This document shows positions 8,991 through 40,984 of a stretch of 64,000 bases of DNA, piece by piece. Below the pieces are notes generated by a model, which was not told where the DNA came from, made no database searches, and was given only the letters and a program-made list of their open reading frames with translations. A program made the position numbers and the translations under genes. Each line of letters opens with the position of its first letter. The stretch's first letter is position 1. The stretch lies in assembly GCF_058153355.1 (NCBI RefSeq), contig NZ_CM177019.1. One strand, 5' to 3'.

Positions 8991-9029
8991 AAAAAAAGCC
9001 CGAACGACTGTTCGGGCTTGTCTTCTTAT
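8991..9029. terminator. bidirectional terminator (ydbK / micC)
   Basis: hairpin aagcccgaacgactgttcgggctt flanked by A8 upstream and T-rich downstream. Confidence 0.7.
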
Positions 9030-9089: not shown

Positions 9090-9326
9090 GGCATATAACC
9101 CGCGCAGAATAACGTATAGCAAATTAAAAGTATAATTTTTATTTTGTATGTATTATCTTCGATACATTCACCAGACTTATTATCATTTCAGAGGAATTAT
9201 TTGATTAAGGTTTTACTTAAGGCGTAACAAATGATATTTATCGGCTAACTGAACTTCTCCTTTAGGATGTTTTCATTCCCCGAAATGGGGATAAAAGGCA
9301 AATAAAATAACTAAAGGATTTATTCA

Positions 9327-10460: not shown

Positions 10461-10468
10461 ATCCTCCT

Positions 10469-10493
10469 GCCCGCTGTTATGGCGGGCTTTTTC
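10469..10493 (+). terminator. rho-independent terminator of ompN
   Basis: gcccgctgttatggcgggc followed by tttttc. Confidence 0.8.
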
Positions 10494-10519
10494 TGCTTAT
10501 TCTTCCTCCTTTGATCTAA

Positions 10520-11035
<516 letters not shown>

Positions 11036-11042
11036 CACTAAC

Positions 11043-11068
11043 GCCCGCACATTGCTGCGGGCTTTTTG
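11043..11068 (+). terminator. rho-independent terminator of uspF
   Basis: gcccgcacattgctgcgggc followed by tttttg. Confidence 0.8.
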
Positions 11069-11123
11069 ATTCATTTCGCAAATGTGCTGACATTTTCCCC
11101 TCTAATCATTACAATTTAAATTT

Positions 11124-11723
11124 ATGAATTATGCATTGATAATCGCTATTATAATATCGTTCCCCTGTGCATTATTATCAGTTTTTCTGGTATTAAAAGA
11201 CTGGGCGCTAATAGGAGATGCAATGAACCACGCAATGTTTCCTGGCATAGTTCTAGCCTGGATTATAGGTATGCCGCTGGGAATTGGTGCATTTATTGTA
11301 GGACTGTCTTGTGCAATTGCAACTGGCTATCTGAAAGATAATAGCATCATAAAGAAAGATACCATTATAGGTATCGTTTTTTCAGGAATTTTTGTCTTGA
11401 CTATCAACAGGCACAAGTCAGCGGATTACAGATATCATTATTACATTACGGTTTACTCTGCATGGTATCGCCTACCATTTTTGCCACATTAAAAGCAGTC
11501 GGAATTATTCTGTCTATATACTATTAATAGCTCCAGGGTCTATTGCTGTCCTCATCACGCATCGCTTTCATAAGACATTACTTATCGCCGTAACGATATC
11601 AATAACAATATCAGGCGTATGGTTATTATATTTTCTCGACAGAGCCCCAGCGCCGACAATCGTCCTCTTATTTGCTGTAGCATTTCTTTTCGCGCTTATA
11701 ATAATCAATTTTCGGAAACAATA
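11124..11723 (+). pseudogene. degraded ABC-3 (ZnuB/MntB-like) permease remnant; frameshifted and internally shortened
   Basis: N-terminal frame gives ...ALIGDAMNHAMFPGIVLAWIIGMPLGIGAFIVGL... (like ZnuB GDTLAHASLLGVAFGLL); a second frame gives the permease C-terminus LIAPGSIAVLITHRFHKTLLIAVTISITISGVWLLYFLDRAPAPTIVLLFAVAFLFALII; total under 200 codons, AT-rich. Confidence 0.5.
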
Positions 11724-12003
11724 ATCTCAACAGTAGAATAAAGAGGCAAATCAATCATTACATATATAAGATGGTGCTAATATTGCACCGCCTTTAAATT
11801 GAACTTTATCCTTTCACCCTTACACAATTTAAGGAATGCAGATGACTATTTTATCAGCACCCAGCCTTTTTCCTGGTAATCGAAAACTTGAAAATCATTA
11901 ACTCTAAGAAATTCTGCCAAATCGTTGAAATTACTTTAAATTAGACTCGAACAAATCAACCCCTGATGGGGCTTTTACTTATCCATTTAATCGGGTATAT
12001 ATC

Positions 12004-12053
12004 GACCTCCATCTGCCCGCCTCAGATTCGTACCTGGTGGAGGTCTTTTTTCG
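12004..12053 (+). terminator. hairpin plus T-run in AT-rich island
   Basis: gacctcca...tggaggtc inverted repeat followed by ttttttcg. Confidence 0.35.
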
Positions 12054-12112
12054 TTACCTCTTTCCCCCTTTAGTTCAGTATAAAATCATCAAACTAATGC
12101 TGTTCACACTAT

Positions 12113-12292
12113 TTACCTCCAGCATTCTATATAAATAATAGAAATAAAAACCCCAATACATAGTGCATTGGCATGACCAAACATCAATGCCATTATACTC
12201 GCCTCTGTTAAATACTCGCTAGTTAATATGATAGGCACGCATGATATAACAATCCATATGCTAATACATAAATACACCAGTATTTTTCTCAT
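12113..12292 (-). CDS. hypothetical 59-aa hydrophobic small protein (candidate only)
   Basis: ATG preceded by AGGGA SD at 6-nt spacing; translation MRKILVYLCISIWIVISCVPIILTSEYLTEASIMALMFGHANALCIGVFISIIYIECWR with two hydrophobic stretches; lies in AT-rich DNA where chance ORFs are common. Confidence 0.2.
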   Translation of the reverse strand: MRKILVYLCISIWIVISCVPIILTSEYLTEASIMALMFGHANALCIGVFISIIYIECWR

Positions 12293-13049
12293 AGTCAGTC
12301 CCTGTGATTAACAATCAAGGCATAGTTAAGCATATTTCACATTCAAACGTAAACATTATTAATAACATTATGTCAATCGAACTGACATCACGATTCAAGC
12401 CCTCTTCAGACTGAAGGCTAGAGCAGCGTAGAACATTTCAAAACAATACACTGAAAAAATACTTGAACAAAAAACTTAATTCTTTTTTATTGTGAACTTT
12501 AGTAATTTTGTCATGCAACTCTTTATTACATTTAGGCCTATCTTATTTCATGGCAACGCAAATACAGGACCATTTCTTGTGCTATGGATAAGTAATAAGC
12601 TAGTTACATCTTATTAAGAGAACCATTTTCACATATCAAAATATCATCACCACCCACAATGAATTAAGTATTTTTCTTATTCTTTAGATTAGATACGTAA
12701 TGAATCCCTAACTCCATTCGGGTGTCATGGCTCTTTCATTTGAAATACATTCATATCCAATGTAATATTTCTATGCGCAAATATAACTACCGACCATACT
12801 CATCATTTATTACAGAGAATTATTTTATTCACCGAAAAGTTTCACAAAATATCCCCTGATAGAAAACTAAAAAACACTGCATAATATCGCTATTCTGGCA
12901 CTTGCGAAAAATTATATTCTGCACCTGTTGTAGCGTTCTATTTCTCCGCCTGGCAACGAATGCACAATGTCCGCCACAGTTTCTGTTCTAATTTCTTCCT
13001 GTGTTACCGCATCCTGTACGGGTAGCGCAACACCAGCATGCTAAGCAAG

Positions 13050-13309
13050 GCTTTCCCATCAGATTTCACTACGACTATTTGGGAGCGAGATGGAATGCAG
13101 CAGTAAAACGTGCTGGTATTCGCCGCCGTAATCCGTACCATACGCGACATACTTTTGCCTGCTGGCTGTTGACGGCAGGAGCGAACCCGGCATTTATAGC
13201 CAGCCAGATGGGGCATGAAACTGCGCAGATGGTGTATGAAATTTACGGTATGTGGATTGATGACATGAACGACGAACAGGTAGCTATGTTGAATGCGCGG
13301 TTATCGTAG
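13050..13309 (+). pseudogene. 5'-truncated tyrosine-recombinase (phage integrase) 3' fragment
   Basis: translation ...RRRNPYHTRHTFACWLLTAGANPAFIASQMGHETAQMVYEIYGMWIDDMNDEQ... carries the integrase C-terminal H-x-x-R/HT box and the catalytic Tyr region; no N-terminal domain; abuts ttcA 5' end where intR lies in K-12. Confidence 0.6.
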
Positions 13310-13360
13310 TTGCAAAGTTTGCCCCCAATTTGCCCCATTTAGTACCAGAGAACTGAAATA

Positions 13361-14296
13361 ATGCAAGAAAATCAAAAGAATACGAAGAAAGAGATATACA
13401 ATCTGAACAAATTACAAAAACGTCTGCGTCGTAACGTGGGCGAAGCCATTGCTGACTTCAATATGATTGAAGAAGGCGATCGCATCATGGTTTGCCTCTC
13501 CGGGGGTAAAGACAGCTATACCATGCTGGAGATTCTGCGCAATTTGCAGCAAAGCGCGCCAATCAATTTTTCGCTGGTGGCTGTTAACCTCGATCAAAAG
13601 CAACCGGGCTTCCCGGAACACGTTCTGCCCGAGTATCTTGAAAAGCTGGGCATTGAGTACAAGATTGTGGAAGAGAACACTTACGGTATCGTGAAAGAGA
13701 AGATTCCGGAGGGCAAAACCACTTGCTCACTGTGTTCTCGTCTTCGTCGCGGAATTCTTTACCGTACCGCAACGGAACTGGGAGCGACGAAGATCGCGCT
13801 GGGTCACCATCGTGACGATATCCTGCAAACGTTGTTCTTAAATATGTTCTACGGCGGCAAGATGAAAGGTATGCCTCCGAAACTGATGAGCGATGATGGC
13901 AAACATATTGTGATTCGTCCGCTGGCCTACTGCCGCGAGAAAGATATTCAGCGCTTTGCCGATGCAAAAGCGTTCCCGATTATTCCTTGCAACCTGTGCG
14001 GTTCACAGCCTAACCTGCAACGTCAGGTGATTGCTGACATGTTGCGTGACTGGGATAAACGTTATCCGGGGCGTATCGAGACGATGTTCAGCGCGATGCA
14101 GAATGTGGTGCCGTCGCATCTGTGCGATACCAACCTGTTCGATTTCAAAGGCATTACCCACGGTTCTGAAGTGGTTAACGGGGGTGATCTGGCGTTTGAT
14201 CGCGAAGAGATCCCTCTACAACCGGCGGGTTGGCAGCCTGAAGAAGATGAAAATCAGTTGGATGAGTTACGACTGAATGTGGTGGAAGTGAAATAA
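13361..14296 (+). CDS. ttcA: tRNA 2-thiocytidine(32) synthetase TtcA (311 aa)
   Basis: PP-loop ATPase motif CLSGGKDS plus CSLCSR/CNLC cysteine pairs. Confidence 0.9.
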
Positions 14297-14400
14297 CCCG
14301 GATAGCGCCCGATGCGCAAGCTTATCGGGCTACTCTTATGGAGGCCGGATAAGACGCGGCCAGCGTCGCATCCGGCAATCCCGAAGAAGATGTTTACTCT
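14297..14400. repeat. REP/BIME-type extragenic palindromes
   Basis: gcccgatgcgcaagcttatcgggc and gccggataagacgcggccagcgtcgcatccggc between convergent ttcA and dbpA. Confidence 0.6.
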
Positions 14401-14424
14401 TGCACCCTGCGATTCAACATTTCA

Positions 14425-15798
14425 TTATTTTAATAACCGCACCCGGCACGTTTTTCCTTTAATTTTACCGCCCTGTAACTGTTTCCATGCTTTATGAGCA
14501 ACAGCCTGACGCACCGCGACATAGACATGCGCCGGATGCACGGCGATTTTGCCAATATCTGCGCCATCAAGCCCGATATCTCCTGTCAGCGCACCTAATA
14601 CATCACCCGGGCGCATTTTGGCTTTTTTCCCGCCATCGATACATAACGTTGCCATTTCTGCTTCCAGCGGCACAATGGAACTATTAACTGGCGGCGTTTG
14701 CCAGTTAAGTTTTATCTGCAACATGTCAGAAATGATATTGGCCCGCTGTGCTTCTTCCGGGGCACAGAAACTGATCGCCAGACCGCTATTTCCTGCACGC
14801 GCTGTACGCCCGATGCGATGTACATGAACTTCAGGGTCCCACGCCAGTTCAAAGTTCACTACCAGCTCAAGCGATTTAATATCAAGACCACGCGCAGCAA
14901 CATCCGTCGCAACCAGCACACGAGCGCTACCGTTAGCAAAACGTACCAGGGTCTGATCGCGGTCACGTTGCTCCAGATCGCCATGTAACGACAATGCACT
15001 TTGCCCTATGTCATTCAGCGCGTCGCAGACAGCCTGACAATCTTTTTTGGTATTGCAAAACACCACGCAAGAGGATGGCTGATGCAAACTTAATAACCGT
15101 TGCAACAGCGGAATTTTGCCTTTGCTGGATGTCTCATAAAATTGTTGTTCAATGGGAGGCAGAGCATCTGTTGAGTCAATTTCAATCGCCAATGGATCGC
15201 GTTGAACTCGTCCGCTGATTGCGGTGATGGCTTCCGGCCAGGTTGCCGAAAACAGAAGCGTCTGTCGAGATGCTGGCGCAAAACGGATAACATCATCAAT
15301 GGCATCGCTAAATCCCATATCCAGCATGCGATCGGCTTCATCCATCACCAGCATATTCAACGCATCCAGTGATACCGTGCCTTTTTGCAGATGGTCCAGC
15401 AAACGCCCCGGGGTTGCCACGATAATATGCGGCGCATGTTGCAACGAATCACGCTGCATACCGAACGGTTGACCACCGCACAAAGTCAAAATTTTGGTAT
15501 TTGGCAGAAAACGCGCCAGCCGACGCAATTCACCTGCCACCTGATCCGCCAGTTCACGCGTAGGGCACAGCACTAAAGCCTGGGTCTGAAATAGCGACGC
15601 ATCAACTTTCTGTAGCAGCCCGAGGCCAAAAGCCGCCGTTTTGCCGCTGCCGGTTTTCGCCTGCACGCGAACATCTTTTCCGGCAAGGATCGCCGGAAGC
15701 GCGGCAGCCTGCACCGGCGTCATAGTTAAATAACCCAACTCATTAAGGTTCGTGAGTTGGGCGGGAGGCAAAACATTCAGGGTAGAAAAAGCGGTCAC
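14425..15798 (-). CDS. dbpA: ATP-dependent RNA helicase DbpA (457 aa, GTG start)
   Basis: DEAD-box motifs AKTGSGKT, VMDEADRM, SAT; C-terminal RNA-binding domain. Confidence 0.9.
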   Translation of the reverse strand: MTAFSTLNVLPPAQLTNLNELGYLTMTPVQAAALPAILAGKDVRVQAKTGSGKTAAFGLGLLQKVDASLFQTQALVLCPTRELADQVAGELRRLARFLPNTKILTLCGGQPFGMQRDSLQHAPHIIVATPGRLLDHLQKGTVSLDALNMLVMDEADRMLDMGFSDAIDDVIRFAPASRQTLLFSATWPEAITAISGRVQRDPLAIEIDSTDALPPIEQQFYETSSKGKIPLLQRLLSLHQPSSCVVFCNTKKDCQAVCDALNDIGQSALSLHGDLEQRDRDQTLVRFANGSARVLVATDVAARGLDIKSLELVVNFELAWDPEVHVHRIGRTARAGNSGLAISFCAPEEAQRANIISDMLQIKLNWQTPPVNSSIVPLEAEMATLCIDGGKKAKMRPGDVLGALTGDIGLDGADIGKIAVHPAHVYVAVRQAVAHKAWKQLQGGKIKGKTCRVRLLK

Positions 15799-15828
15799 AA
15801 TCTGTTCTCGTGGTCATCGACGCAAAAA

Positions 15829-16002
15829 TTAGCAAGCGCGTATCCTCGCAGATCTACGCTCACGATGCGACAATTTAATCGGTTCTTCATCGGGTGGTGG
15901 GTCAGGCATGGGTTGCGGGCGAGGGATTGGATCGGGCACTGGAACAGGATCGCCAGGAATCGGTTCAGGGACAGGAATTTGCAAATAAATGAGTGTCGTC
16001 AT
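15829..16002 (-). CDS. hypothetical proline-rich small protein (57 aa)
   Basis: strong SD GGAGGG 6 nt upstream of ATG; translation MTTLIYLQIPVPEPIPGDPVPVPDPIPRPQPMPDPPPDEEPIKLSHRERRSARIRAC; between FnrS terminator and dbpA start; below the 60-aa ORF track threshold. Confidence 0.4.
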   Translation of the reverse strand: MTTLIYLQIPVPEPIPGDPVPVPDPIPRPQPMPDPPPDEEPIKLSHRERRSARIRAC

Positions 16003-16060
16003 ATTTCCCTCCGGTCATTGGGTGGACTCTTAAAGGGTAGACGCTGATATATAACAGGCA

Positions 16061-16181
16061 AAAAAAAGCCGACTCATCAAAGTCGGCGTCGTACGAATCA
16101 ATTGTGCTATGCAGTAATTCAAAAAAGGAAGTAAGACAATATGGAGCGCAACGCCCATCGCTTGACGTTGCATTCACCTGC
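16061..16181 (-). ncRNA. fnrS: FnrS sRNA (FNR-activated, anaerobic)
   Basis: reverse complement reads GCAGGTGAATGCAACGTCAAGCGATGGGCGTTGCGCTCCATATTGTCTTACTTCCTTTTTTGAATTACTGCATAGCACAATTGATTCGTACGACGCCGACTTTGATGAGTCGGCTTTTTTTT; zntB-dbpA intergenic location as in K-12. Confidence 0.85.
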
Positions 16182-16216
16182 AAGAGAGATATTGCCCTGA
16201 ATGGGTAGAGAGTTTA

Positions 16217-16230
16217 TTGACTTCGCTCAA
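16217..16230 (-). promoter_or_regulatory. FNR binding site upstream of fnrS
   Basis: TTGAGCGAAGTCAA (TTGAT-N4-ATCAA class) centred about 42 bp upstream of the inferred FnrS 5' end. Confidence 0.65.
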
Positions 16231-16276
16231 ACTTTGCGGCGTTTTTGTATACAGACCGCCGGAAAAATTGCTTTTG

Positions 16277-17281
<1,005 letters not shown>

Positions 17282-17513
17282 TTATTTTGTAGTCTAGCCT
17301 TCTGGCCCTGTTACGCAACATCTCATCACCCCATTACCCTGAAATGATTAATAAAATTCTGTCTAAATTGAATACAAAAAGCAAAATGCTTTTCCATATA
17401 CAAACCGTGTGAAGTGTTAAATAGCGTCTATCATTATCAGAATTATCTGATCATATGACGTGGCTTTTTGCGATCGGATAGCAACAAAAATTGATAAAAA
17501 TAACGGGATCTCA

Positions 17514-20568: not shown

Positions 20569-20743
20569 GACGCCACCGATAACCGTTATTTATCAGACCA
20601 AAGAAACTGGCATCTACTTTAATGCAGATGATTGTGTCAGGGTAATTTATGAACGGTTAAAACTGTGAAAAATCAGTTAGTGATAAGTAAAAACTATCAC
20701 TACGTGAACCGGGTCACATTTTTTACTGATGACGGGAAAGGTT

Positions 20744-29627: not shown

Positions 29628-30659
29628 ATGATCGCTGAACTGTTTACAAATAATGCGCTTAATCTGGTCATTATTTTCGGTAGCTGCGCAGCATTGATTC
29701 TGATGAGCTTTTGGTTTCGCCGCGGAAATCGTAAAAGAAAAGGATTTTTATTCCATGCGGTGCAATTTTTAATCTACACCATAATTATCAGTGCTGTTGG
29801 TAGCATCATTAATTATGTTATAGAAAACTATAAACTCAAATTTATCACCCCAGGCGTTATCGATTTTATCTGTACGTCCCTGATTGCGGTTATTCTGACG
29901 ATTAAGTTATTTCTGCTGATTAATCAGTTTGAAAAACAGCAGATTAAAAAAGGTCGTGATATCACCAGTGCGCGGATTATGTCGCGTATCATCAAAATCA
30001 CCATTATTGTGGTACTTGTTTTGCTTTATGGCGAACATTTCGGCATGAGCCTTTCTGGCTTGCTGACCTTTGGTGGTATTGGTGGTCTGGCTGTCGGTAT
30101 GGCCGGTAAAGATATTTTGAGTAACTTCTTTTCCGGGATTATGCTCTATTTCGACCGTCCTTTTAGTATTGGCGACTGGATCCGTTCACCGGACAGAAAT
30201 ATCGAAGGTACAGTAGCGGAAATTGGCTGGCGAATTACCAAAATTACGACCTTTGATAATCGTCCGTTATACGTCCCGAACTCGCTGTTTTCGTCTATCA
30301 GCGTAGAAAACCCGGGGCGAATGACCAACCGACGTATTACCACGACAATCGGTTTACGTTATGAGGATGCGGCAAAAGTGGGAGCCATTGTCGAAGCCGT
30401 ACGTGAGATGCTTAAAAATCACCCAGCCATCGACCAGCGACAAACCTTACTGGTTTATTTCAACCAGTTTGCTGACTCGTCATTGAATATTATGGTTTAT
30501 TGCTTTACCAAAACCACAGTATGGGCTGAATGGCTTGCCGCCCAGCAGGATGTTTATTTGAAGATTATCGATATTGTACAGTCACACGGCGCGGATTTCG
30601 CGTTCCCAAGCCAGACGCTGTATATGGATAACATTACACCACCAGACCAGGGTCGTTAA
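29628..30659 (+). CDS. ynaI: MscS-family mechanosensitive channel YnaI (343 aa)
   Basis: N-terminal TM helices followed by MscS beta-domain ([26 protein letters not shown]). Confidence 0.85.
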
Positions 30660-30672
30660 TTCAGACATCACT

Positions 30673-30700
30673 GGCGTTACCCACAAGGGTAACGCCAGTT
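30673..30700. terminator. bidirectional hairpin between convergent ynaI and mppA
   Basis: ctggcgttaccc-acaa-gggtaacgccag. Confidence 0.6.
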
Positions 30701-30704
30701 CACA

Positions 30705-32318
30705 TCAATGTTTCACAATATACATAGTCCGGCTATACGCCACATCTTCCGGGTTATTAATGGGATAACCTTTCAGCCACGGCTTGATTAATCGTCCATT
30801 GGTATATTGATAAATTGGTGCAATCGGTGCTTGCTCCATGAGGATTTTTTCTGCCGCATTGTAATCGGCATTACGCGCTTTAACGGTATTTTCCGTCGAT
30901 GCCTGGGCCAAAACTTTGTCGTAGGCCGGGTTGTTAAAGCGTGAAATGTTGCCTGAATGCGTTGACGTTAATAATGTCAGGAAGGTGGAGGGTTCATTAT
31001 AATCCCCCACCCACGAGGCGCGGATAACATCAAAATTACCTGTATTACGACTATCGATATAGGTTTTCCATTCCTGATTTTGCAATTTAACATCTACGCC
31101 AAGGTTCTTTTTCCACATCGATGCTACAGCAATCGCAATTTTTTGATGGTTTTCTGAAGTGTTATACAAAAGCGTCAGCTTCAGCGGTTTTTGCGGACCA
31201 TAACCAGCGGCGCTCAACAAAGTTTTTGCCTGCGCATTCAGTTCTTCCTGACTCATTTGTTCAAACGGCGAAGGTTCCGGCGTAAATCCCGCGGTAACAT
31301 CTGGTGTAAAATGCCACGCTGGCTTTTCGCCCGTCCCCAACACTTTTTCGGTCATCAGGCGGCGATCTATCGTCATACTTAATGCCAGGCGAACGCGCTG
31401 ATCTGCCGTCGGCCCTTTTTGCGTGTTAAACGCATAATAATAGGTCCCGAGCTGCGGCGGCGTATAAACCTGCCCCGGAATATCCTTCAACAGCTTCTGA
31501 TACATATTTTTCGGGAAGGATTCGGTGATATCAATATCCCCCGCGAGGTAACGCTTAGTGGCTGCGGATTCCTGATTAATTGGCAGGAAGGTCACTTTTT
31601 GCAGTACCGTTTTGGCGTTATCCCAATAATGGGTATTCGGTACCACGACCAGTTTTTCATTGACTACGCGCTCTTTAAGAACATAAGCGCCATTGCCGAT
31701 CAGATTTCCGGGTTTCGTCCACTCTTTACCGCTTTCTACGTTGGCTTTTTGCACCGGGAAGAAGGCAAAGTTAGCGGTTAAATTCACAAACCACGGCAAC
31801 GGTTTATCAAGCTGAATTTTCAAAGTATGGGCATCAACTGCGGTGACGCCAAGCTGGTCAGGCGTAGCTTTACCATCAATAATCGCCTGTGCGTTGTTGA
31901 TTCCCGCCAGCGCGGCAAACCATGCAAATGGCGATAGAGTTTTCGGGTCCACCAGACGCTGCCAGCTGTAGACAAAATCTTGCGCCGTTACCGGTATGCC
32001 ATCCGCCCATTTTGCGTTATCGCGCAGGGTAAAAGTCCAGATACGGTTGTCATTACTTTTCCACTGAGTCGCAACGCCGGGGACAATCTCCCCTTTCTCG
32101 TTCTGATTCACCAGTCCTTCAAACAGATCGCGAATGACCTGAATCTCCGGCAGGCCCACGGCTTTAGCGGGATCCAGCGACGCAGGCTCATCTTTAATGT
32201 GGCGCACCAGCTCCTGCTTCTCTGCCAGTACTGTGCCGCTCGGAACTTCTGCAGCATACGAAAGAGAAATGCTGCTGACCAACAGCGCACAACACGTGAC
32301 TGAAACAGAGTGCTTCAT
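30705..32318 (-). CDS. mppA: periplasmic murein tripeptide-binding protein MppA (537 aa from MKHSVSV)
   Basis: family-5 solute-binding protein (OppA paralogue) with signal peptide. Confidence 0.9.
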   Translation of the reverse strand: MKHSVSVTCCALLVSSISLSYAAEVPSGTVLAEKQELVRHIKDEPASLDPAKAVGLPEIQVIRDLFEGLVNQNEKGEIVPGVATQWKSNDNRIWTFTLRDNAKWADGIPVTAQDFVYSWQRLVDPKTLSPFAWFAALAGINNAQAIIDGKATPDQLGVTAVDAHTLKIQLDKPLPWFVNLTANFAFFPVQKANVESGKEWTKPGNLIGNGAYVLKERVVNEKLVVVPNTHYWDNAKTVLQKVTFLPINQESAATKRYLAGDIDITESFPKNMYQKLLKDIPGQVYTPPQLGTYYYAFNTQKGPTADQRVRLALSMTIDRRLMTEKVLGTGEKPAWHFTPDVTAGFTPEPSPFEQMSQEELNAQAKTLLSAAGYGPQKPLKLTLLYNTSENHQKIAIAVASMWKKNLGVDVKLQNQEWKTYIDSRNTGNFDVIRASWVGDYNEPSTFLTLLTSTHSGNISRFNNPAYDKVLAQASTENTVKARNADYNAAEKILMEQAPIAPIYQYTNGRLIKPWLKGYPINNPEDVAYSRTMYIVKH

Positions 32319-32374
32319 AAGTTTCCCTCTAACCGACATTAAAATTGATGCGTAATTATTTGTTTCGCCTTAAA

Positions 32375-32411
32375 GAAATGCAAACAACTTCCATCAAAAA
32401 AGTGACAAAGG
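32375..32411 (+). repeat. copy A of a ~35-bp repeated intergenic element (mppA upstream)
   Basis: GAAATGCAAACAACTTCCATCAAAAAAGTGACAAAGG; near-identical copy at 36371..36408. Confidence 0.6.
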
Positions 32412-32654
32412 AAGCATCAAATGTTTTAAGTATCAATATATCAAATCAGATTTAGTGTAAATAATAGTCTCCAAAATGCGGTAAAGCACATAGAACTCCG
32501 AACACTACGTTCGGGCTTCGCACGTTCAAACCCGTTTTCGGTATCATAATCAGCATCTGTCGCCATTGTACGAAGAATAAAAAATAACCAAAACGTTGAA
32601 AGGAACTGAGAATACGTTAAGAGAAGAATTAAATTAATGTATCAGCAAGTAGTG

Positions 32655-33554
32655 CTAAACAGCACCTTTATACTTCAGCCTATCTATAAATAATGAGAAT
32701 GCCGAGCCAGCATGTCGACGGTGTGGATAGTACAGGTGATAACCGGGTAAATCTGGTGTGAATTTATCCAAAACACGTATCAGTTTTTTTTCTTTAATAG
32801 CCCGCTCAACCTGATCATAAGGTAGATACGCCAATCCATGCCCATCAATTGCAGCATCAATGATCAGGTCTATCGTATTCAGTAAAAGCTGACCTTCCAT
32901 GCGAACACGAACTTCACGTCCACCGCGTATTAATCTCCAGCGATTTGCTGTACCCGATGTGGGAAGATACAAATTAATTGCCTGATGATCTATTAATTGT
33001 GACACTGACGTTGGAGCACTTCGACGAGAAAAATAATCCGGTGAGCCAACAATAGCCATTGGTATATCTGGCCCGATTCGAATGGCGATCATATCTTTAT
33101 CCATCTCCCCACCCAGACGGACGCCTGCATCAAAACGTTCAGAAACGACATCGGTCAAACCATAATCAATGGTAAGCTGGATATCAATTTCAGGATGCGA
33201 TTTCAGGAATGTGCGCATAGCTGGTAACAATATCGTTTTTGCTGCATGTTCTACAGTAGTAATACGTATTGTCCCGGATGGGCGGTTCTGCAGATCGCTC
33301 AGGGATGTCAGGGCAGAATCTATGTCATGCAACATAGGGCCAAGAACAGACAAAAGATGCTCGCCCGCTTCAGTGGGTACAACGCTGCGCGTGGTTCGCG
33401 TCAGAAGCCGCAATCCCAATCGTTCTTCTATACGGCGCACTATCTGGCTTAAAGCTGACTGCGCCATGCTCAGGCGGGCTGCTGCGCGAGTGAAGCTACG
33501 CTCCTCTGCAACGACGACAAACGCCATCAGATCAGCGATTTCTTCACGCTTCAT
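32655..33554 (-). CDS. pgrR: LysR-type regulator PgrR/YcjZ (299 aa)
   Basis: N-terminal LysR HTH (LMAFVVVAEERSFTRAAARLSMAQSALSQIVRRIEE); divergent from ycjY. Confidence 0.8.
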   Translation of the reverse strand: MKREEIADLMAFVVVAEERSFTRAAARLSMAQSALSQIVRRIEERLGLRLLTRTTRSVVPTEAGEHLLSVLGPMLHDIDSALTSLSDLQNRPSGTIRITTVEHAAKTILLPAMRTFLKSHPEIDIQLTIDYGLTDVVSERFDAGVRLGGEMDKDMIAIRIGPDIPMAIVGSPDYFSRRSAPTSVSQLIDHQAINLYLPTSGTANRWRLIRGGREVRVRMEGQLLLNTIDLIIDAAIDGHGLAYLPYDQVERAIKEKKLIRVLDKFTPDLPGYHLYYPHRRHAGSAFSLFIDRLKYKGAV

Positions 33555-33578
33555 TCAGTATCTCCATACAATCTATTA

Positions 33579-33621
33579 ATCATTTAAATGATAGGTCTAA
33601 TCATAATTTAGGGTCTAATCA
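33579..33621. promoter_or_regulatory. putative LysR-type operator in pgrR-ycjY divergent region
   Basis: perfect palindrome ATCATTTAAATGAT (T-N11-A type) followed by direct repeats GGTCTAATCA x2. Confidence 0.35.
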
Positions 33622-33679
33622 ACTTAATGATCAATATCTATAGTGATATCACCAACCGTCAAAACGAACCGACAACTCC

Positions 33680-34612
33680 ATGAGGAACGGAATGATGAAT
33701 AATAAAGTCAGCTTCACTAACAGCAATAATCCAACCATCTCTTTGTCTGCAGTGATCTATTTCCCTCCAAAATTTGATGAAACCCGTCAGTATCCGGCAA
33801 TTGTGGTATCTCACCCAGGTGGGGGCGTTAAAGAGCAAACGGCCGGAACCTATGCCGAAAAACTGGCGGAAAAGGGATTTGTCACTATTGCTTATGACGC
33901 ATCTTATCAAGGTGAAAGCGGCGGCGAGCCGCGTCAGTTAGAAAACCCATACATTCGTACTGAAGACGTCAGTGCCGTGATTGATTACCTGACAACGCTT
34001 TCTTATGTCGACAATACCCGAATTGGTGCGATGGGAATTTGTGCCGGTGCAGGATATACAGCCAATGCTGCAATTCAGGATCGCCGCATCAAGGCCATCG
34101 CTACCGTTAGTGCGGTCAATATTGGTTCGATGTTCCGTAATGGTTGGGAAAACAATGTGAAATCTATTGATGCCCTACCATACGTTGACGCGGGTTCAAA
34201 CGCCCGAACCAGCGATATTAGCAGCGGAGAATACGCCACTATGCCACTGGCACCAATGAAGGAGTCCGATGCGCCGAACGAAGAACTGCGTCAGGCCTGG
34301 GAGTATTACCACACCCCTCGCGCGCAGTATCCAACAGCACCGGGTTACGCTACTTTGCGCAGCCTTAACCAGATTATTACCTATGATGCTTACCATATGG
34401 CGGAAGTGTACCTGACTCAGCCGATACAGATTGTGGCGGGCAGCCAGGCAGGGAGCAAATGGATGAGTGACGACCTGTACGATCGAGCATCAAGCCAGGA
34501 TAAACGCTATCACATTGTTGAAGGCGCAAACCATATGGATCTTTATGACGGCAAAGTCTATGTGGCTGAATCAATTTCAGTATTAGCTCCGTTCTTTGAG
34601 GAAACTCTGTAA
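33680..34612 (+). CDS. ycjY: alpha/beta-hydrolase family protein YcjY (310 aa as ORF)
   Basis: hydrolase-fold protein; context matches ycjY; true start may be the internal MMNNK. Confidence 0.75.
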   Translation: MRNGMMNNKVSFTNSNNPTISLSAVIYFPPKFDETRQYPAIVVSHPGGGVKEQTAGTYAEKLAEKGFVTIAYDASYQGESGGEPRQLENPYIRTEDVSAVIDYLTTLSYVDNTRIGAMGICAGAGYTANAAIQDRRIKAIATVSAVNIGSMFRNGWENNVKSIDALPYVDAGSNARTSDISSGEYATMPLAPMKESDAPNEELRQAWEYYHTPRAQYPTAPGYATLRSLNQIITYDAYHMAEVYLTQPIQIVAGSQAGSKWMSDDLYDRASSQDKRYHIVEGANHMDLYDGKVYVAESISVLAPFFEETL

Positions 34613-35551
34613 TGAAACATATTCAAATCCGTAATAGTGATATGGCCTGGCATATTGCTGCCAATATTCAGTTTCCACCAAATTTTGATGAGTCAAAACA
34701 GTATCCGGCGATTATCAGCGTCCATCCTTTTGGCAGTTGTAAGGAGCAGACGTCTGGCAATATCTATGGCAAGGCATTGGCTGAAAAAGGCTATGTCGTT
34801 CTCGCTTATGACGCCAGTTTCCAGGGAGAATCTGGTGGGGAGCCTCGTTGGATAGAAGATCCGACACAGCGCGTAGAGGATATTAGCCGTGTTATCGATT
34901 ATGCAGTAACTCTGCCATATGTTGATGCTGAACGCATTGGCGTGCTGGGTGTGTGTGTGGGGGGGGGGGGGTGGCTATGCCATTAATGCCGCGCTGACAG
35001 AAAAACGAATTAAAGCTGTAGTGAGTATTACGGGTGTTAATATCGGGCGTCTTTTTCGGGAAGGTTTCAGCAATTACGATCCGATTGGCGCATTGAATGC
35101 AATGGCGTCGCAACGAACCAAAGAGGCTCGTGGTGGAGAATTACAGATCAACGAATTACTTCCCGCCAGCCTGGATGCAGCAAAAGCCCATGGACTGACC
35201 GAACGCGATGTTTATGAAGCAACTGACTACTATAAAACACCACGCGGGCAACAACCGGGAGGTGCGACAAAAATGTTGTTCTCACATGCACAGAAAACGC
35301 TGGCCTGGGATGCCTTCGCATTTACTGAAGTGTTACTGACTCAGCCGGTGATGGTAGTAGTTGGTGAAAAAGTCGGTGCCTTCGGTGCTTATCGTGATGG
35401 ACTGGAAGTCTATGGCCGGGCGATGGTTTCGCAGGATCGTCAGTTAGTTTCGTTACCCGATTTCTCACATTATGAACTGTATGACAAACCGGAAGCAGTT
35501 CAGGAGGCGCTGGAAAAAGTTATTCCTTTTTTCAACACCCATCTGGGATAA
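34612..35551 (+). pseudogene. ycjY-paralogous alpha/beta hydrolase, frameshifted at a (GT)4-G12 tract
   Basis: ORFs 34612..34986 and 34919..35551 are collinear with YcjY residue-by-residue (DAERIGVLGVCVGGG | YAINAALTEKRIKAVVSITGVNIG... versus YcjY DNTRIGAMGICAGAGYTANAAIQDRRIKAIATVSAVNIG); reading frame switches inside gtgtgtgtg + 12 G (34951..34971). Confidence 0.7.
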
Positions 35552-35556
35552 GTTTC

Positions 35557-36207
35557 ATGAGAAATATTATGAAAAAAGTACTCATTCTTGGTGCTGGCGG
35601 TCAGATAGCCCGCCATGTGATTAATCAACTGGCAGATAAACAAACCATTAAACAAACTTTATTTGCTCGTCAGCCAGCAAAAATACACAAACCCTATCCA
35701 ACTAATAGCCAGATTATTATGGGGGATGTACTGAATCATGCAGCACTGAAGCAGGCCATGCAGGGACAGGATATTGTGTATGCCAACCTTACGGGGGAAG
35801 ATTTAGATATTCAGGCAAATTCAGTGATCGCTGCGATGAAAGCCTGTGATGTTAAACGTCTGATCTTTGTTCTTTCCCTCGGCATTTATGATGAAGTTCC
35901 AGGAAAATTTGGCGAATGGAATAATGCAGTTATTGGTGAGCCCCTAAAACCATTCCGCAGGGCTGCGGATGCAATTGAGGCTTCTGGACTGGAATATACA
36001 ATTCTTCGCCCTGCCTGGCTGACTGATGAAGATATTATTGATTATGAGCTTACCTCACGCAATGAACCATTCAAAGGTACGATCGTATCACGTAAGAGTG
36101 TCGCAGCATTAATCACAGATATCATCGATAAACCTGAGAAACACATTGGTGAGAATATAGGCATCAATCAACCCGGGACTGATGGTGATAAGCCCTTCTT
36201 CATGTAA
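35557..36207 (+). CDS. NAD(P)H-binding NmrA/SDR-like protein (216 aa)
   Basis: N-terminal Rossmann motif VLILGAGGQIARHV; I recall only a fragment (ymjC) at this position in K-12. Confidence 0.7.
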   Translation: MRNIMKKVLILGAGGQIARHVINQLADKQTIKQTLFARQPAKIHKPYPTNSQIIMGDVLNHAALKQAMQGQDIVYANLTGEDLDIQANSVIAAMKACDVKRLIFVLSLGIYDEVPGKFGEWNNAVIGEPLKPFRRAADAIEASGLEYTILRPAWLTDEDIIDYELTSRNEPFKGTIVSRKSVAALITDIIDKPEKHIGENIGINQPGTDGDKPFFM

Positions 36208-36370
36208 ATCAATTATATAGCTACCATCGTACTGTACTATGTGCAGTACGATTTATTAAACTTATTAAGGTGAACTGATCAATCAGATGCGATTAACATG
36301 TGTAGAACCAGTAAGAATAAAATACGCCATGTATATAACATTACGACAATTCTAATATCTGCACATCAAT

Positions 36371-36408
36371 GAAAATACAAACAACTTCCGGCAAAAAAGT
36401 GATACAAG
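36371..36408 (+). repeat. copy B of the ~35-bp repeated intergenic element (mpaA upstream)
   Basis: GAAAATACAAACAACTTCCGGCAAAAAAGTGATACAAG; about 90% identical to 32375..32411. Confidence 0.6.
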
Positions 36409-36497
36409 ATCGATAACATAGCGTTGAAGAAAAGGATTTGATAATCCGCAAAATTTGCACAACACTGCCTGTAATACTTCCTGAACCAGAGACGATT

Positions 36498-37226
36498 ATG
36501 ACCGTAACCCGCCCACGCGCCGAACGCGGCGCATTTCCGCCCGGAACAGAACATTACGGACGTTCATTATTGGGCGCGCCGTTAATCTGGTTTCCGGCCC
36601 CTGCAGCCAGTCGCGAAAGTGGTTTGATTCTGGCTGGCACTCACGGTGATGAAAACTCTTCGGTCGTCACGCTCTCCTGTGCTCTGCGGACTTTGACACC
36701 GTCTTTGCGCCGCCATCATGTAGTGCTGTGTGTGAATCCTGACGGCTGCCAGTTAGGGTTACGGGCCAATGCTAATGGTGTGGATTTAAACAGAAACTTT
36801 CCGGCGGCGAACTGGAAGGAGGGTGAAACGGTTTATCGCTGGAACAGCGCGGCTGAAGAACGTGATGTCGTATTACTGACAGGTGACAAACCTGGCTCCG
36901 AACCTGAAACCCAGGCGCTGTGCCAGCTTATACACCGCATTCAACCTGCCTGGGTGGTCTCATTCCACGATCCACTGGCCTGTATTGAAGATCCCAGACA
37001 CAGCGAATTAGGCGAATGGCTGGCCCAGGCGTTTGGATTGCCTCTGGTAACCAGCGTCGGTTATGAAACTCCTGGCTCTTTCGGCAGTTGGTGTGCGGAT
37101 CTCAACCTGCATTGCATCACCGCAGAGTTTCCACCTATCTCCTCCGACGAAGCCAGCGAAAAATACCTCTTTGCGATGGCTAACTTGCTGCGCTGGCATC
37201 CTAAAGATGCAATGCGCCCGTCGTGA
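36498..37226 (+). CDS. mpaA: murein peptide amidase A (gamma-D-Glu-Dap amidase, 242 aa from MTVTRPRAERG)
   Basis: zinc-carboxypeptidase-like motif GTHGDENSS; 3' end overlaps convergent ycjG by 26 bp. Confidence 0.85.
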   Translation: MTVTRPRAERGAFPPGTEHYGRSLLGAPLIWFPAPAASRESGLILAGTHGDENSSVVTLSCALRTLTPSLRRHHVVLCVNPDGCQLGLRANANGVDLNRNFPAANWKEGETVYRWNSAAEERDVVLLTGDKPGSEPETQALCQLIHRIQPAWVVSFHDPLACIEDPRHSELGEWLAQAFGLPLVTSVGYETPGSFGSWCADLNLHCITAEFPPISSDEASEKYLFAMANLLRWHPKDAMRPS

Positions 37227-38166
37227 ATTGAAGCGCTGGTTCCACATCTACCGCCAGCCAGGTCGGTCCGTCAAGATCAGCAAAACTGACCTGCGGCACC
37301 AGCGGTAAAGCGGCGCTAATGGCACGAGAGGTACACAACATGCAGCCCAGCATCAGACTGAAACCTTGTGCACGCGCTTCGGTCGCCAGCGCCAGCGCTT
37401 CCGTCAGGCCACCCGTTTTATCGAGCTTAATGTTAACCATCTCATAGCGCCCTTTCAGCGCCTTCAGATTGCTACGAGTATGACAACTTTCATCTGCACA
37501 AATCGGTAACGGATGAATAAAATTCTCCAGTGCCGCATCGTCCTGCGCAGGAAGCGGTTGTTCAAGCATCGCAACGCCTAAATCCGCCAATAGCTGGCAA
37601 CGCGCCGCCAACCCTTCTGCACGCCAGGATTCATTTGCATCAACGATTAGCGTCGCATCGGGTACAGCCGTGCGAATTGCTACCATCCGCTCACTGATAA
37701 GATGGTTATCCAGCTTCACTTTCAGTAATTTCGCGCCTGCCTGCCAGAGTGTTGATGCACTATTGGCCATCTGATCAGGCGTACCGATGACTACCGTCTG
37801 GGCAGTGGTGACTGTCTCGGGAAGCGTTATGCCGATCAAATCAGCCAGCGATTGCTGCTGTTTTCGCGCCGCCAGATCCCACAATGCACAATCCAGCGCA
37901 TTACGTGCTGCGCCGGCAGGGAGAATTTTTTGCAACTCCTCCCGTGTCAGCCCTTTCTCTAATTGCGGCACGACGCTCATAATTTGCGCCATTACCGAGG
38001 CATCACTTTCTCCATAACGCGGATACGGCGTGCATTCACCGGTGCCTTTAATACCTTCTTCTTCCAGTTCAACCACCACCACGCGCGCTTCACTACGACT
38101 TCCCCGAGCAATCACAAACGGGGTATGTAAGGGCCAGGCTTCCTCAAATACCTTAACGATTCTCAT
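37201..38166 (-). CDS. ycjG: L-Ala-D/L-Glu epimerase YcjG (321 aa from MRIVKVFEEA)
   Basis: enolase-superfamily (MR/MLE) fold. Confidence 0.85.
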   Translation of the reverse strand: MRIVKVFEEAWPLHTPFVIARGSRSEARVVVVELEEEGIKGTGECTPYPRYGESDASVMAQIMSVVPQLEKGLTREELQKILPAGAARNALDCALWDLAARKQQQSLADLIGITLPETVTTAQTVVIGTPDQMANSASTLWQAGAKLLKVKLDNHLISERMVAIRTAVPDATLIVDANESWRAEGLAARCQLLADLGVAMLEQPLPAQDDAALENFIHPLPICADESCHTRSNLKALKGRYEMVNIKLDKTGGLTEALALATEARAQGFSLMLGCMLCTSRAISAALPLVPQVSFADLDGPTWLAVDVEPALQFTTGALHL

Positions 38167-38284
38167 CTTTACTCCTTGTTGTCGCGGTGGTCTGCGGATT
38201 AAGCGCAAATAGCGTTTGCTGTGTTATTGACAGTTAGCATAAACTAGGTGTGACGTTAACTATATGTAAACAGGAAAGATAATC

Positions 38285-38788
38285 ATGTCACAAACCGTTC
38301 ATTTCCAGGGCAACCCGGTTACAGTAGCCAATTCCATCCCGCTGGCGGGTAGCAAAGCGCAGACTTTTACTCTCGTGGCAAAAGATCTGTCTGACGTCAC
38401 CCTCGGTCAGTTTGCGGGTAAACGCAAAGTGCTGAACATTTTCCCGAGTATTGATACCGGTGTTTGCGCCGCATCAGTACGTAAGTTTAACCAACTGGCA
38501 ACTGAGATCGACAACACCGTTGTGCTGTGTATCTCTGCCGATCTGCCGTTCGCCCAGTCTCGTTTCTGCGGCGCAGAAGGTCTGAACAACGTTATCACCC
38601 TCTCCACTTTCCGTAACGCTGAATTCCTGCAAGCCTACGGTGTGGCAATTGCTGATGGCCCACTGAAAGGTCTGGCAGCGCGTGCCGTTGTGGTTATCGA
38701 TGAAAATGACAATGTGATTTTCAGCCAGCTGGTTGATGAAATCACCACCGAGCCGGATTACGAAGCAGCTCTTGCTGTACTGCGCTAA
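38285..38788 (+). CDS. tpx: thiol peroxidase Tpx (167 aa)
   Basis: atypical 2-Cys peroxiredoxin with peroxidatic Cys in [10 protein letters not shown]. Confidence 0.95.
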
Positions 38789-38795
38789 ACAACTG

Positions 38796-38835
38796 TGCCG
38801 TTCACTGAATCACCACCGGTGAACGGCAGTTTTTG
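38796..38835 (+). terminator. rho-independent terminator of tpx
   Basis: tgccgttcac-(13 nt loop)-gtgaacggca followed by gttttt. Confidence 0.7.
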
Positions 38836-38929
38836 ATCTACCAATCCCACTATTTTCCAGAGTTCCTGCCACTATTCCCCCTAACCGTTGTGCATTAAGA
38901 TTGTTCTTTGCCATTATTAGCCCAGCGGA

Positions 38930-40984
38930 GTGATGACTATTATGGATGATAAACAAATTACGGTCTGGCTTAAACACAATTGCTGTTCAACGGACATTCC
39001 TGCCATTGCCGAGGCACTAACGAACCATGCAGAATGGCTTTTAGAGCTAGCGCCAGATCCTATTGAACAAGGTAGTTCATGTTTACCGCCGACAGCTGCA
39101 GCCGGTATTTTTCTTGGCGCAGCGGCGATGGTTCACTGCGGCGAGGCTAGTGGTGCAGAAACCTGGCTCGAAGCAGCCATTACTGATTACCATTTCTTTA
39201 ATCCAAATGGATATAGTTCATGGAGAGGCAGTACGCCTGTTTTTACAGCATTATCGCGTTACCCGGCATTAAGAATGGTGTTATTTAACGCCGCTTGCGC
39301 AATGGAAGACTGGAATAAAGCATCCGCTGTTCTTGAATCGCTTTTCCATGCCGGCGATGTCCCGGAAGATAACCCTGTCGCCCCAAATTTTACCCCTTAT
39401 GCGCTGAAAGCGTTTATCGCGGATTACCACCCGTTAGGGCCTGCTTATTATGATGAAACCTGGTTGCTGGCAAAACAAGCGTGGTTAATTAATGCGGGCG
39501 TTCTGGATGAGCGAACCTGTAATACCTGGAAGCAATATACCCGCCACTTGCGCCATTTGATCCACAATACACAGTTTGCCGATGCGCTCTCTTTTGTACG
39601 CAGTAAAAAAGAACCGTTAAATCATATCCATACCTACTCAGACTTTTATCTGTATGCGATTGGTTTATTTTCTTATACTAGTCAGCTAAATGAAGCGCTG
39701 ACCTGGATAAAACAGTTAATCCACAACAATGATGGTCATTTCTGTGATCTTTTCGTTTCAACTGGCAAAGAGCGCCGAATAAAGCCTGAACTTAGTACCT
39801 TGCTGAATAATCTCTTGCACAGCGCAGAGTTTCAGGCGTTGCAGGATAAATATCTCACCGTCGGACATGATGTTGTGTATTCTGGTCCCTTCATGTCACT
39901 TTATGAAAAGGTTCTTGGCGGTAAGTCCCGAAAGCGCTGCGCGATTAGTCGAAAATTAATCTCGCCCGGCGAAGCGGTTTATGAATATCGTCAGCTGGAT
40001 AGTGTGGAATATATTGCAGCAAAAGCGGCCTTTCAGACATCTGAGCTAAATAATATCGCCCACCGGCATCATAATGATAGTTATCAGTGGCATGAATTTG
40101 CTGCCCAATGGCCTCGTCGGGGTTCACTTTCTCACCCAGATATTGCCCGTTATTTGTTTGAGCGCCAGGAAGGAAAATGCTTTGATGCCGCAGAGTTTAT
40201 ACAACTGATTGCGGAACCGTTTGTCTTTCCGATGCGTTTCATATGGGTTGCCGGGTTGTCCTTTGAATTACATCAGTATCCGGATGCCTATTTCGTAAAT
40301 GACAATATGGCGGGTGAATTTGTTAATCTCTGCTGGATGGCTATGAAATGCGGACATGCTGGAGACATTTTCAAACAACTGGCCCACGAGCCGCATGACG
40401 TTGCTGACCCTATTTACGCCATGCTCGCCACGTTTGACCGCGCTGATTGCCGTAGCGCCGCCGCCGCGCACTTTGGACAACCGGAACTACCGGAAATAAT
40501 GGCACTGGCTTTCAGTTCGAGGTTATCGCTGGACAGCGTCCTTACCATCGCTGAGTTTGGTAAAAATCAGCCGCGATTTTCACATGCGCTAGCAACGGCC
40601 CTCCTGCGTTACAACCTGCACATCTACTCAAACTATATGCCGCAGGTTAACTGGTTCCTTCAGGGGCTGGAACACTATGCTTTGGCAAAAGGCGGTCAAC
40701 TTTTAAATTTCTTTGTGCATATTCCAGAACAAATTCCCGTTCTGGCGACCATGCTGGAACATGGCGTATTAGTGCGTGGGATCGGTGAAGGTGCCTACGA
40801 TGGTTATGATAATTCAGCAAATTCATTTCATCATGCCGCCGTGATGCACTGCCTCACGCACGCGCCGGAAAAAGTCCGCTACTGGATGGAAACACCCTGG
40901 ATTCAGAACTATTTAGTGAATGCGCCGCTGCGTCAAACGGCGCGCCATGTGGAAGCCTGGCATAAAAAGTTTGGCATCAAATGA
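38930..40984 (+). CDS. uncharacterised 684-aa soluble protein (no recognisable domain)
   Basis: single long ORF with GGAG SD before the second ATG; no Walker A, HTH, DDE or TM signature; Cys/His/Trp/Tyr-rich; lies between tpx and tyrR. Confidence 0.7.
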   Translation: MMTIMDDKQITVWLKHNCCSTDIPAIAEALTNHAEWLLELAPDPIEQGSSCLPPTAAAGIFLGAAAMVHCGEASGAETWLEAAITDYHFFNPNGYSSWRGSTPVFTALSRYPALRMVLFNAACAMEDWNKASAVLESLFHAGDVPEDNPVAPNFTPYALKAFIADYHPLGPAYYDETWLLAKQAWLINAGVLDERTCNTWKQYTRHLRHLIHNTQFADALSFVRSKKEPLNHIHTYSDFYLYAIGLFSYTSQLNEALTWIKQLIHNNDGHFCDLFVSTGKERRIKPELSTLLNNLLHSAEFQALQDKYLTVGHDVVYSGPFMSLYEKVLGGKSRKRCAISRKLISPGEAVYEYRQLDSVEYIAAKAAFQTSELNNIAHRHHNDSYQWHEFAAQWPRRGSLSHPDIARYLFERQEGKCFDAAEFIQLIAEPFVFPMRFIWVAGLSFELHQYPDAYFVNDNMAGEFVNLCWMAMKCGHAGDIFKQLAHEPHDVADPIYAMLATFDRADCRSAAAAHFGQPELPEIMALAFSSRLSLDSVLTIAEFGKNQPRFSHALATALLRYNLHIYSNYMPQVNWFLQGLEHYALAKGGQLLNFFVHIPEQIPVLATMLEHGVLVRGIGEGAYDGYDNSANSFHHAAVMHCLTHAPEKVRYWMETPWIQNYLVNAPLRQTARHVEAWHKKFGIK

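Follow-up and report, generated by a model that had tools for sequence, protein, structure and literature searches.

In a 64,000-nucleotide (nt) stretch of contig NZ_CM177019.1 (RefSeq assembly GCF_058153355.1), here called the window, two ~37-bp elements lie upstream of mppA and mpaA, one at each gene. They are probably the core of an attachment (att) site, duplicated when a lambda-like element integrated into the divergent promoter region that the two genes share. It is close to certain that the repeat arose by duplication during an insertion of some kind. An integrase origin of the duplication is likely, and there are good grounds to read the left and right copies as the attR-like and attL-like junctions of a decayed lambdoid element. 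Between the copies is an island that includes pgrR, the gene of a LysR-type regulator:

30705..32318, minus strand: mppA coding sequence (CDS), 537 amino acids (aa)
32376..32412, unstranded: left copy, putative attR-like junction; mppA-side half is ancestral spacer, island-side half is phage-arm-like; contains the predicted mppA -35 hexamer and the lambda-like core CAACTTCCATCAAAAAAGTGA
32413..36372, unstranded: inserted island, 3.96 kb; 74 of 77 related species and 174 E. coli genomes are without it
36373..36409, unstranded: right copy, putative attL-like junction; same as ancestral spacer positions 58-94 except for a lineage-specific G>A (AAAATACAAAC)
36498..37226, plus strand: mpaA CDS, 242 aa

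The pair had been picked out in a first-pass annotation of the window as two near-identical elements with a LysR regulator gene, pgrR, lying between mppA and mpaA. Both sequences are present where it placed them, and the gene layout confirms the position of pgrR. A repeat search returned 32376-32412 and 36373-36409 as a two-copy direct-repeat family with a spacing of 3997, in which 31 of 37 nt are identical without gaps (84%) and the likeness ends at the element edges. The left copy is 58-94 nt upstream of the mppA ATG (32318) and the right copy is 89-125 nt upstream of the mpaA ATG (36498). Both are on the plus strand, in direct orientation, and it is the divergence of mppA (minus strand) and mpaA (plus strand) that makes each copy face its gene in a different sense. 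The opposite orientations had been taken to favor a protein-binding site, an argument that carries no weight for direct repeats flanking an insertion.

The elements are not members of a larger family. The core pattern CAAACAACTTCCNNCAAAAAAGTGA has exactly two matches in the window when up to three mismatches are allowed (expected 0.00; 100 shuffles). The genome-wide motif search that had been proposed was run on 5426 complete E. coli genomes and found the element in a median of two and a maximum of four places per genome. A dispersed repeat (REP, ERIC, or MITE) or chance match was ruled out by these counts and by the lack of an Rfam family. A scan of positions 30000-39000 against Rfam gave nothing except one chance-level match inside pgrR, which also ruled out a known RNA family or leader.

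The empty site shows what the locus looks like when it lacks the island. The same 5426 genomes were sorted into structural classes by megablast of the region, with the empty-site junction then used as query. In 174 of them, including ST648 strains, one copy of the element lies between divergent mppA and mpaA genes that are direct neighbors; ~3% of E. coli strains are thus without the island. Beyond E. coli, a scan for MpaA in species-representative genomes gave 80 loci, and both genes could be located in 77. The two are adjacent in 74 of these 77 Enterobacteriaceae species, across a gap of 138-316 nt (mostly 182-190 nt). Taxa with the compact spacer represent >15 genera and include Escherichia albertii, E. 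whittamii, Citrobacter, Enterobacter, Klebsiella, and Kluyvera. The three exceptions are one Escherichia lineage with the same island (locus L005) and two Salmonella subspecies with a different insert.

Comparison with the 182-nt spacer of ST648 defines the insertion. The left flank of the island has the spacer sequence unchanged at positions 1-74 and 77-87, after which the likeness decays up to 94, and the right flank matches at 58-181 with one mismatch (position 62); position 182 also differs. Because the left flank matches 1-94 and the right flank 58-181, spacer positions 58-94 are duplicated around 3.96 kb. Direct repeats therefore flank a segment that is absent in relatives and the empty site has one copy, the arrangement expected of an att duplication. 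Judged from these comparisons, the empty one-copy state is ancestral at the level of the family, and the copies are alike by descent from one ancestral segment rather than as two promoters keeping a common operator. Each copy departs from the ancestral sequence only in its island-facing half (for the left copy, GTGACAaaggaagc vs the ancestral GTGATAcaagatcg), a pattern that speaks against selection for the complete 37-mer at each gene.

The reverse history, in which two copies are ancestral and single-copy spacers arose by repeated deletion between the repeats, is extremely improbable. The ST648 spacer is exactly the product expected from such recombination, with flanks identical to those of island-bearing E. 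coli, and some of the 174 empty E. coli sites could be secondary excisions. However, the compact spacers of the 74 species keep block order and spacing without any vestige of the island, there are signs that the cargo genes were transferred horizontally, and the copies share 12-17 nt of uninterrupted identity between diagnostic differences.

The control region between mppA and mpaA

Alignment of the spacer across 66 species revealed five conserved blocks, A-E, and the repeat consists of blocks B and C. Absence of conservation in orthologous spacers had been raised as grounds to doubt the element; the alignment instead shows it to be conserved across Enterobacteriaceae. Blocks A (GTAATTATTTGTTTC) and B (GAAATGCAAA) provide, on the minus strand, predicted -10 and -35 hexamers, AATAAT and TTGCAT, separated by 17 nt. 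The A-B spacing is identical in 61 of 61 species and both hexamers are near-invariant. Block C (AAA[A/G][T/G]TGAT) is at a fixed distance from B, and blocks D (ATTTGAT[T/A]A) and E (TTTTGCACAACACTGCC) have a constant mutual spacing in 60 of 61 species, leaving the C-D linker as the sole part of variable length. A promoter scan found the same -35/-10 pair (TTGCAT/TTTGCA and AATAAT) in the window and in an empty-site genome; it did not call a promoter at D-E, where the -10 matches at three of six positions. From consensus and conservation, we infer that A-B-C is the mppA promoter module and that D-E is the mpaA module:

32355..32383, minus strand: predicted mppA sigma-70 promoter; -35 TTGCAT at 32383..32378, 17-nt spacer, -10 AATAAT at 32360..32355 (blocks B and A)
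36438..36468, plus strand: predicted mpaA core-promoter module; -35 TTGATA of block D at 36438-36443, 17-nt spacer, -10 AACACT at 36461-36466 within the invariant block E

The left copy contains the predicted mppA -35 hexamer and spans approximately -28 to -64, whereas the right copy occupies approximately -64 to -100 of the predicted mpaA module. Two further observations concern this region. TTTTGCACAACACTGCC (36453-36468) is near-invariant across Enterobacteriaceae (66 species) and has a fixed spacing from ATTTGATTA; its conservation appears to exceed the need of a weak -10, and a regulator may bind there. A CRP site was considered and rejected: CGTGAACCGGGTCACA, listed under ycjZ/mppA in a chromatin immunoprecipitation sequencing (ChIP-seq) table for enterotoxigenic E. 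coli, lies at 20703-20718, 11 kb from mppA. The gene assignment for it in that table, or our reading of the table here, may be shifted.

It is quite improbable that the copies are alike because they form a shared operator, with the same factor (PgrR or an older regulator) binding both and co-regulating mppA and mpaA. The element does cover two blocks conserved in 66 species, and a protein may bind the ancestral single copy. The A/T-rich block C has a fixed distance from the mppA -35, both copies keep CAAACAACTTCC and CAAAAAAGTGA, and an ancestral factor may still bind both residually. However, duplication at insertion fully accounts for the similarity, and the island-facing halves are mutated; in this lineage, mutation has also reached the -35-like hexamer in the right copy. 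Furthermore, the two copies per genome are related by duplication and there are no further regulon members, contrary to what a PgrR box would predict.

Published genomic SELEX (systematic evolution of ligands by exponential enrichment) located the PgrR site in the ycjY/ycjZ(pgrR) spacer and lists none upstream of mppA or mpaA; the regulon comprises ycjY-ymjDC-mpaA, ycjG, and ycjXF-tyrR (PMC5934670). The blocks are also older than pgrR, being conserved in genera that lack it. On these two grounds, a PgrR operator was ruled out, and the link to PgrR drawn in the first-pass annotation falls with it. Its proposal of co-regulation through a shared cis-element is unlikely to explain the likeness: where pgrR is missing, as in the relatives, a lone copy of the sequence lies between mppA and mpaA, which are neighbors. 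It had also offered an operator or a conserved promoter or leader as the nature of the element: conserved regulatory or promoter DNA fits, but the resemblance comes from duplication and not from a common operator. Operators of LysR-type regulators (T-N11-A boxes) and regulon motifs resemble the copies in being short and conserved, in preceding genes that are linked by function, and in having the gene of a LysR-type regulator close by. Here, in contrast, the copies descend from one segment, the sequence is older than the regulator, and the PgrR site is elsewhere.

Lambda-like DNA at the left junction

A lead to the type of element that inserted is at the left end of the island. When searched by BLAST against phage genomes (2.3-Gb database), this end matches lambda-type phages only, and at attP (E 3e-7). 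Two features are adjacent there:

32411..32490, minus strand: remnant resembling the P arm of lambda attP; lambda J02459 27637-27716, -15 to -94 from the core center
32483..32557, minus strand: queH (epoxyqueuosine reductase) pseudogene, internal fragment, after the RefSeq annotation of the orthologous O157:H7 stretch; translation DADYDTENGFERAKPERSVRSSMCF

Positions 32411-32490 are identical to lambda 27716-27637 at 61 of 80 positions without gaps (76%). The alignment scores 65, compared with 19.5 ± 3.0 and a maximum of 34 in 1000 shuffles (z ~15). The remnant begins at the edge of the repeat, the same as in lambda, and ends where the queH fragment starts. When small gaps are allowed, the alignment runs on through the repeat itself. 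There, CAACTTCC(AT/GG)CAAAAAAGTGA is opposite the lambda core region CAACTTAGTATAAAAAAGCTG, with 13 of 21 positions matching ungapped and a lambda-like core pattern of CAACTT...AAAAAAG. Core-type sites of the lambda integrase, Int, have the consensus CAACTTNNT, and the C'-like site CAACTTCCG fits it; the C-like half is weaker (6-7 of 9 positions, in a register uncertain by 1 nt).

The order at the left junction is thus bacterial flank, core, and P arm, which is attR read in reverse. This layout explains the island-facing departure of the left copy from the ancestral sequence. It also explains why each copy differs from the empty site only in its island-facing half and why the empty site resembles a hybrid of both copies. 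Simple duplication followed by random divergence was superseded as an explanation, as the island-facing half of the left copy continues into DNA like the lambda P arm. The remnant is present in exactly 5244 genomes, all island-bearing (5418 with a match minus the 174 empty sites), and in none with an empty site. Its sequence (32408-32492) falls into two allele classes ~7% apart, with 3275 genomes at ≥99% identity and 1947 at 90-95%. A gap of this size is, by our impression, above typical E. coli divergence; neutral decay would fit such a gap, and so would an old exchange by recombination between lineages.

If a lambda-like element did insert here, its integrase would have recombined an attP that shared ~30-37 bp with the spacer. 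Later deletion would have removed the phage genome, its int, xis, and P' arm included. Left over would be ~80 nt of P arm, the queH fragment, and a horizontally acquired cargo of four genes (pgrR, two hydrolase genes, and a gene for a short-chain dehydrogenase/reductase [SDR]). The left copy would now supply the mppA -35 (TTGCAT) and the upstream A/T block, and the island-facing half of the right copy would be a decaying relic. Because the duplicated core covers the center of the control region, mppA and mpaA both kept native upstream DNA: mppA retains its predicted -10 and -35 and the upstream block, and mpaA retains ~125 nt. Differences confined to the island-facing halves are as expected of B-O-P and P'-O-B hybrid sites.

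Several findings weigh against an integrase as the cause. By open reading frames (ORFs) and annotation, the island has no integrase, excisionase, or other phage gene, and its integrase is presumed to have been deleted. Recombinase arm sequence is beside the core at the left (the P arm), but at the right end (36208-36372) there is no detectable P' arm and no phage match. Neither end has an Int arm-type site (C/AAGTCACTAT) at up to two mismatches, which is because the arm is cut off just before P2. No sequenced phage in INPHARED and no provirus in IMG/VR has this attP or is bounded by these flanks; a search of IMG/VR with the P-arm pattern returned lambda-type phages and one E. coli locus (L098) that bears a satellite described below. 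A plasmid search with the island ends recovered lambda control DNA and E. coli records of chromosomal type, and nothing else. Outside this island, the cargo cassette is found on chromosomes and plasmids, not in phages, and may have entered separately, and the lambda-like arm could derive from a later phage that used the left copy. In addition, the promoter assignments are drawn from consensus matches and conservation. In the literature, we found no paper that describes this locus as a prophage remnant.

An insertion that involved no integrase would fit some of these findings. Illegitimate recombination or repair of a staggered break could have duplicated ~37 bp, with the lambda-like arm as later phage debris. 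The island is without a recombinase gene, a P' arm, and arm-type sites, and the cassette occurs in non-phage contexts elsewhere. Moreover, the site has been reused by a phage satellite in strain RM10410, an islet of cdt-like genes in Salmonella, and mEpimmI phages at the mppA start (PMC11893012). We nevertheless regard this history as unlikely. It needs two events where one suffices, the island is without terminal inverted repeats, and a duplication of 30-37 bp exceeds by far the target duplications known from transposition. The P-arm remnant, present in all 5244 island-bearing and 0 empty-site genomes, is as old as the island where this is visible. A transposon was ruled out: target-site duplications of transposons are short (2-14 bp), no transposase is present, and the island ends have no significant terminal inverted repeats, with 10% of shuffles scoring as well.

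Integration by a lambda-like integrase, the reading we prefer, can be compared with known systems. In lambda integration (attP and attB recombine to attL and attR with Int, IHF, and Xis), as here, direct core repeats flank the insert and the empty site has a single hybrid copy. The core here has a site similar to CAACTTNNT along with a run of A, which resembles the C'/C region of lambda, and the lambda P arm, the stretch from the core to Int arm site P2, is 76% identical over the eighty nt beside the core here. Lambda differs in the length of its core (15 bp vs ~30-37 bp here), its overlap (GTATAAA vs the presumed CGGCAAA), and its target (gal-bio vs the mppA/mpaA spacer), and here no int, xis, P' arm, or arm-type sites survive. 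The cryptic lambdoid remnants e14, Rac, DLP12, and Qin are likewise decayed, fixed in most of the species, and composed of att repeats with cargo that the host uses. Those remnants are known to keep recognizable phage genes, often int, whereas this island has only an arm fragment and its content is a metabolic cassette with a regulator. At icd, the site of phage 21 and e14, and at tRNA genes targeted by integrases, the duplicated core also restores native sequence on both sides; what is restored there is the 3' end of a coding or tRNA gene, in contrast to the center of a bidirectional promoter here. The locus is probably a further example of att-site duplication around a highly decayed integrated element.

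Other insertions at the same site

Independent evidence from nature points to the core as an integrase target. In E. coli RM10410 (complete genome) and in an IMG/VR contig, an 11-kb phage satellite is inserted in the left copy:

Locus L104 (E. coli RM10410), 6280-17500, and locus L098, strand not stated: phage satellite in the left copy, with a tyrosine integrase, helix-turn-helix (HTH) regulator, BRO-N, Icd-like protein, primase, SSB, and ClpP-capsid fusion

The capsid component of the RM10410 satellite is a capsid-protease fusion. One of its junctions reads CAACTTCCATCAAAG followed by aagaag..., and the other ends in ccctaCATCCAAAAAG followed by TGACAAAGG; the two have CATC(A/C)AA..AAG in common. 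The crossover is inside CATCAAAAAAG, and the exchange is therefore located in what corresponds to the overlap region of lambda. This satellite is found in other strains beside a phage terminase gene, where the sequence common to the junctions is just CCAAAAAGTG.

The spacer has received unrelated DNA as well. In Salmonella enterica subsp. arizonae and diarizonae (L021 4449-6677; L024), a three-gene islet lies between mppA and mpaA. Its ORFs, judged from translations rather than a homology search, presumably resemble the cytolethal distending toxin genes cdtA/B/C. At these loci, blocks A and B are lost and D and E are kept, block C is recognizable in L024 alone, and neither locus has a duplication flanking the islet. 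In E. coli MFDS1019527 (L001 1624-3069), a prophage with an adjacent tyrosine integrase interrupts mppA ~66 nt into the CDS. Phages of the mEpimmI group integrate at the initiation region of mppA with a type III integrase (PMC11893012), and the site of the MFDS1019527 prophage is probably this published site. The mppA-mpaA spacer appears to be a recurrent insertion hot spot.

The island cargo and the K-12-type deletion

The remaining features of the island are its four genes and a hairpin:

32655..33554, minus strand: pgrR, LysR-type regulator
33680..34612, plus strand: ycjY, alpha/beta hydrolase
34612..35551, plus strand: second alpha/beta hydrolase, frameshifted at a (GT)n-G13 tract near 34951-34975
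35557..36207, plus strand: SDR/NmrA-type oxidoreductase (ymjC in K-12, truncated there)
36226..36252, plus strand: 12-bp hairpin and U-rich tail after the SDR gene (-17.2 kcal/mol, z -3.0), probably a terminator

The cargo has relatives in other bacteria, among them alpha- and betaproteobacteria. Homologues of YcjY that are 81-85% identical occur in Rhizobium, Mesorhizobium, Sphingobium, Burkholderia, and Pluralibacter. Rhizobium plasmid CP004016 (L088 1561-10948) has the same order of LysR regulator, hydrolase, hydrolase, and NmrA/SDR genes, with an IS21 (istA/istB) on one side and three tyrosine recombinase genes in a row on the other; this setting may have served as a vehicle for the wide spread of the cassette. 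Parts of the cassette are in unrelated chromosomal surroundings, and its other contexts include Pluralibacter and a metagenome contig, adjacent to nuo. Nucleotide similarity to the cassettes elsewhere is ~70% and confined to the genes, and none of these donor contexts (Pluralibacter, the nuo-adjacent contig, and the Rhizobium plasmid) has queH or the repeat. High identity of YcjY and the presence of the same cassette elsewhere indicate that it is horizontally mobile. It may have ridden beside the phage P arm or joined the remnant later. In the second hydrolase gene, the tract at 34951-34975 is shorter (G9) in O157:H7 FRIK804, where the gene is likewise annotated as frameshifted; the tract may be a hypermutable homopolymer or a recurrent sequencing error.

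The K-12-type allele has a deletion that starts within the SDR gene, takes out the hairpin at 36226-36252, and stops at the left edge of the right copy. Loss of the hairpin with this deletion is the probable reason that mpaA and ycjY share an operon in K-12. In the window, mpaA most likely uses the ancestral D-E promoter. On its right side, the deletion ends 0-2 nt from the start of the right copy (window 36371-36373; L083 2921-2922; L005 6875-6876), with ccaactaat joined to AAAATGCAAAC, and the same junction is in Escherichia sp. E1V33.

The pgrR-ycjY-ymjDC segment of E. coli can thus be viewed as what is probably left of an integrated element with horizontally acquired cargo, lodged in the old bidirectional promoter that two murein-peptide genes share. 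For the textbook K-12 operon ycjY-ymjD-ymjC-mpaA, an origin by a deletion specific to some lineages is suggested, which bears on how far results on PgrR can be generalized. Blocks A-E represent a conserved, uncharacterized control region of mppA and mpaA across Enterobacteriaceae that is locally a hot spot for integrating elements. More broadly, repeats upstream of functionally linked neighbors can be insertion scars that could easily be taken for a regulon signal.

A bolder proposal is possible but doubtful. It holds that the center of the control region is the attB of an undiscovered branch of lambda-type integrases, that pgrR was its cargo, that control of mpaA by PgrR in K-12 is accidental, and that the site is perhaps still active. 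On this view, pgrR, whose product counts in K-12 as a native regulator of peptidoglycan recycling, would have come in as phage cargo. The control that it exerts on mpaA there would have arisen by accident, through decay of the prophage and a later deletion that took away the SDR terminator and fused mpaA to the ycjY transcript. The insertion in RM10410, possible precise excisions among the 174 empty strains, and a K-12-type deletion that ends at the repeat edge suggest that the site may still recombine.

Elsewhere in the window, a 684-aa ORF (38930-40984, plus strand) separates tpx from tyrR. Neither Pfam, even at E ≤ 10, nor PADLOC gives a match to it. Only 30 of the 5426 complete E. coli genomes have this ORF, annotated there as hypothetical, and it has the look of a rare accessory gene, an orphan, that came to lie among core genes by insertion.

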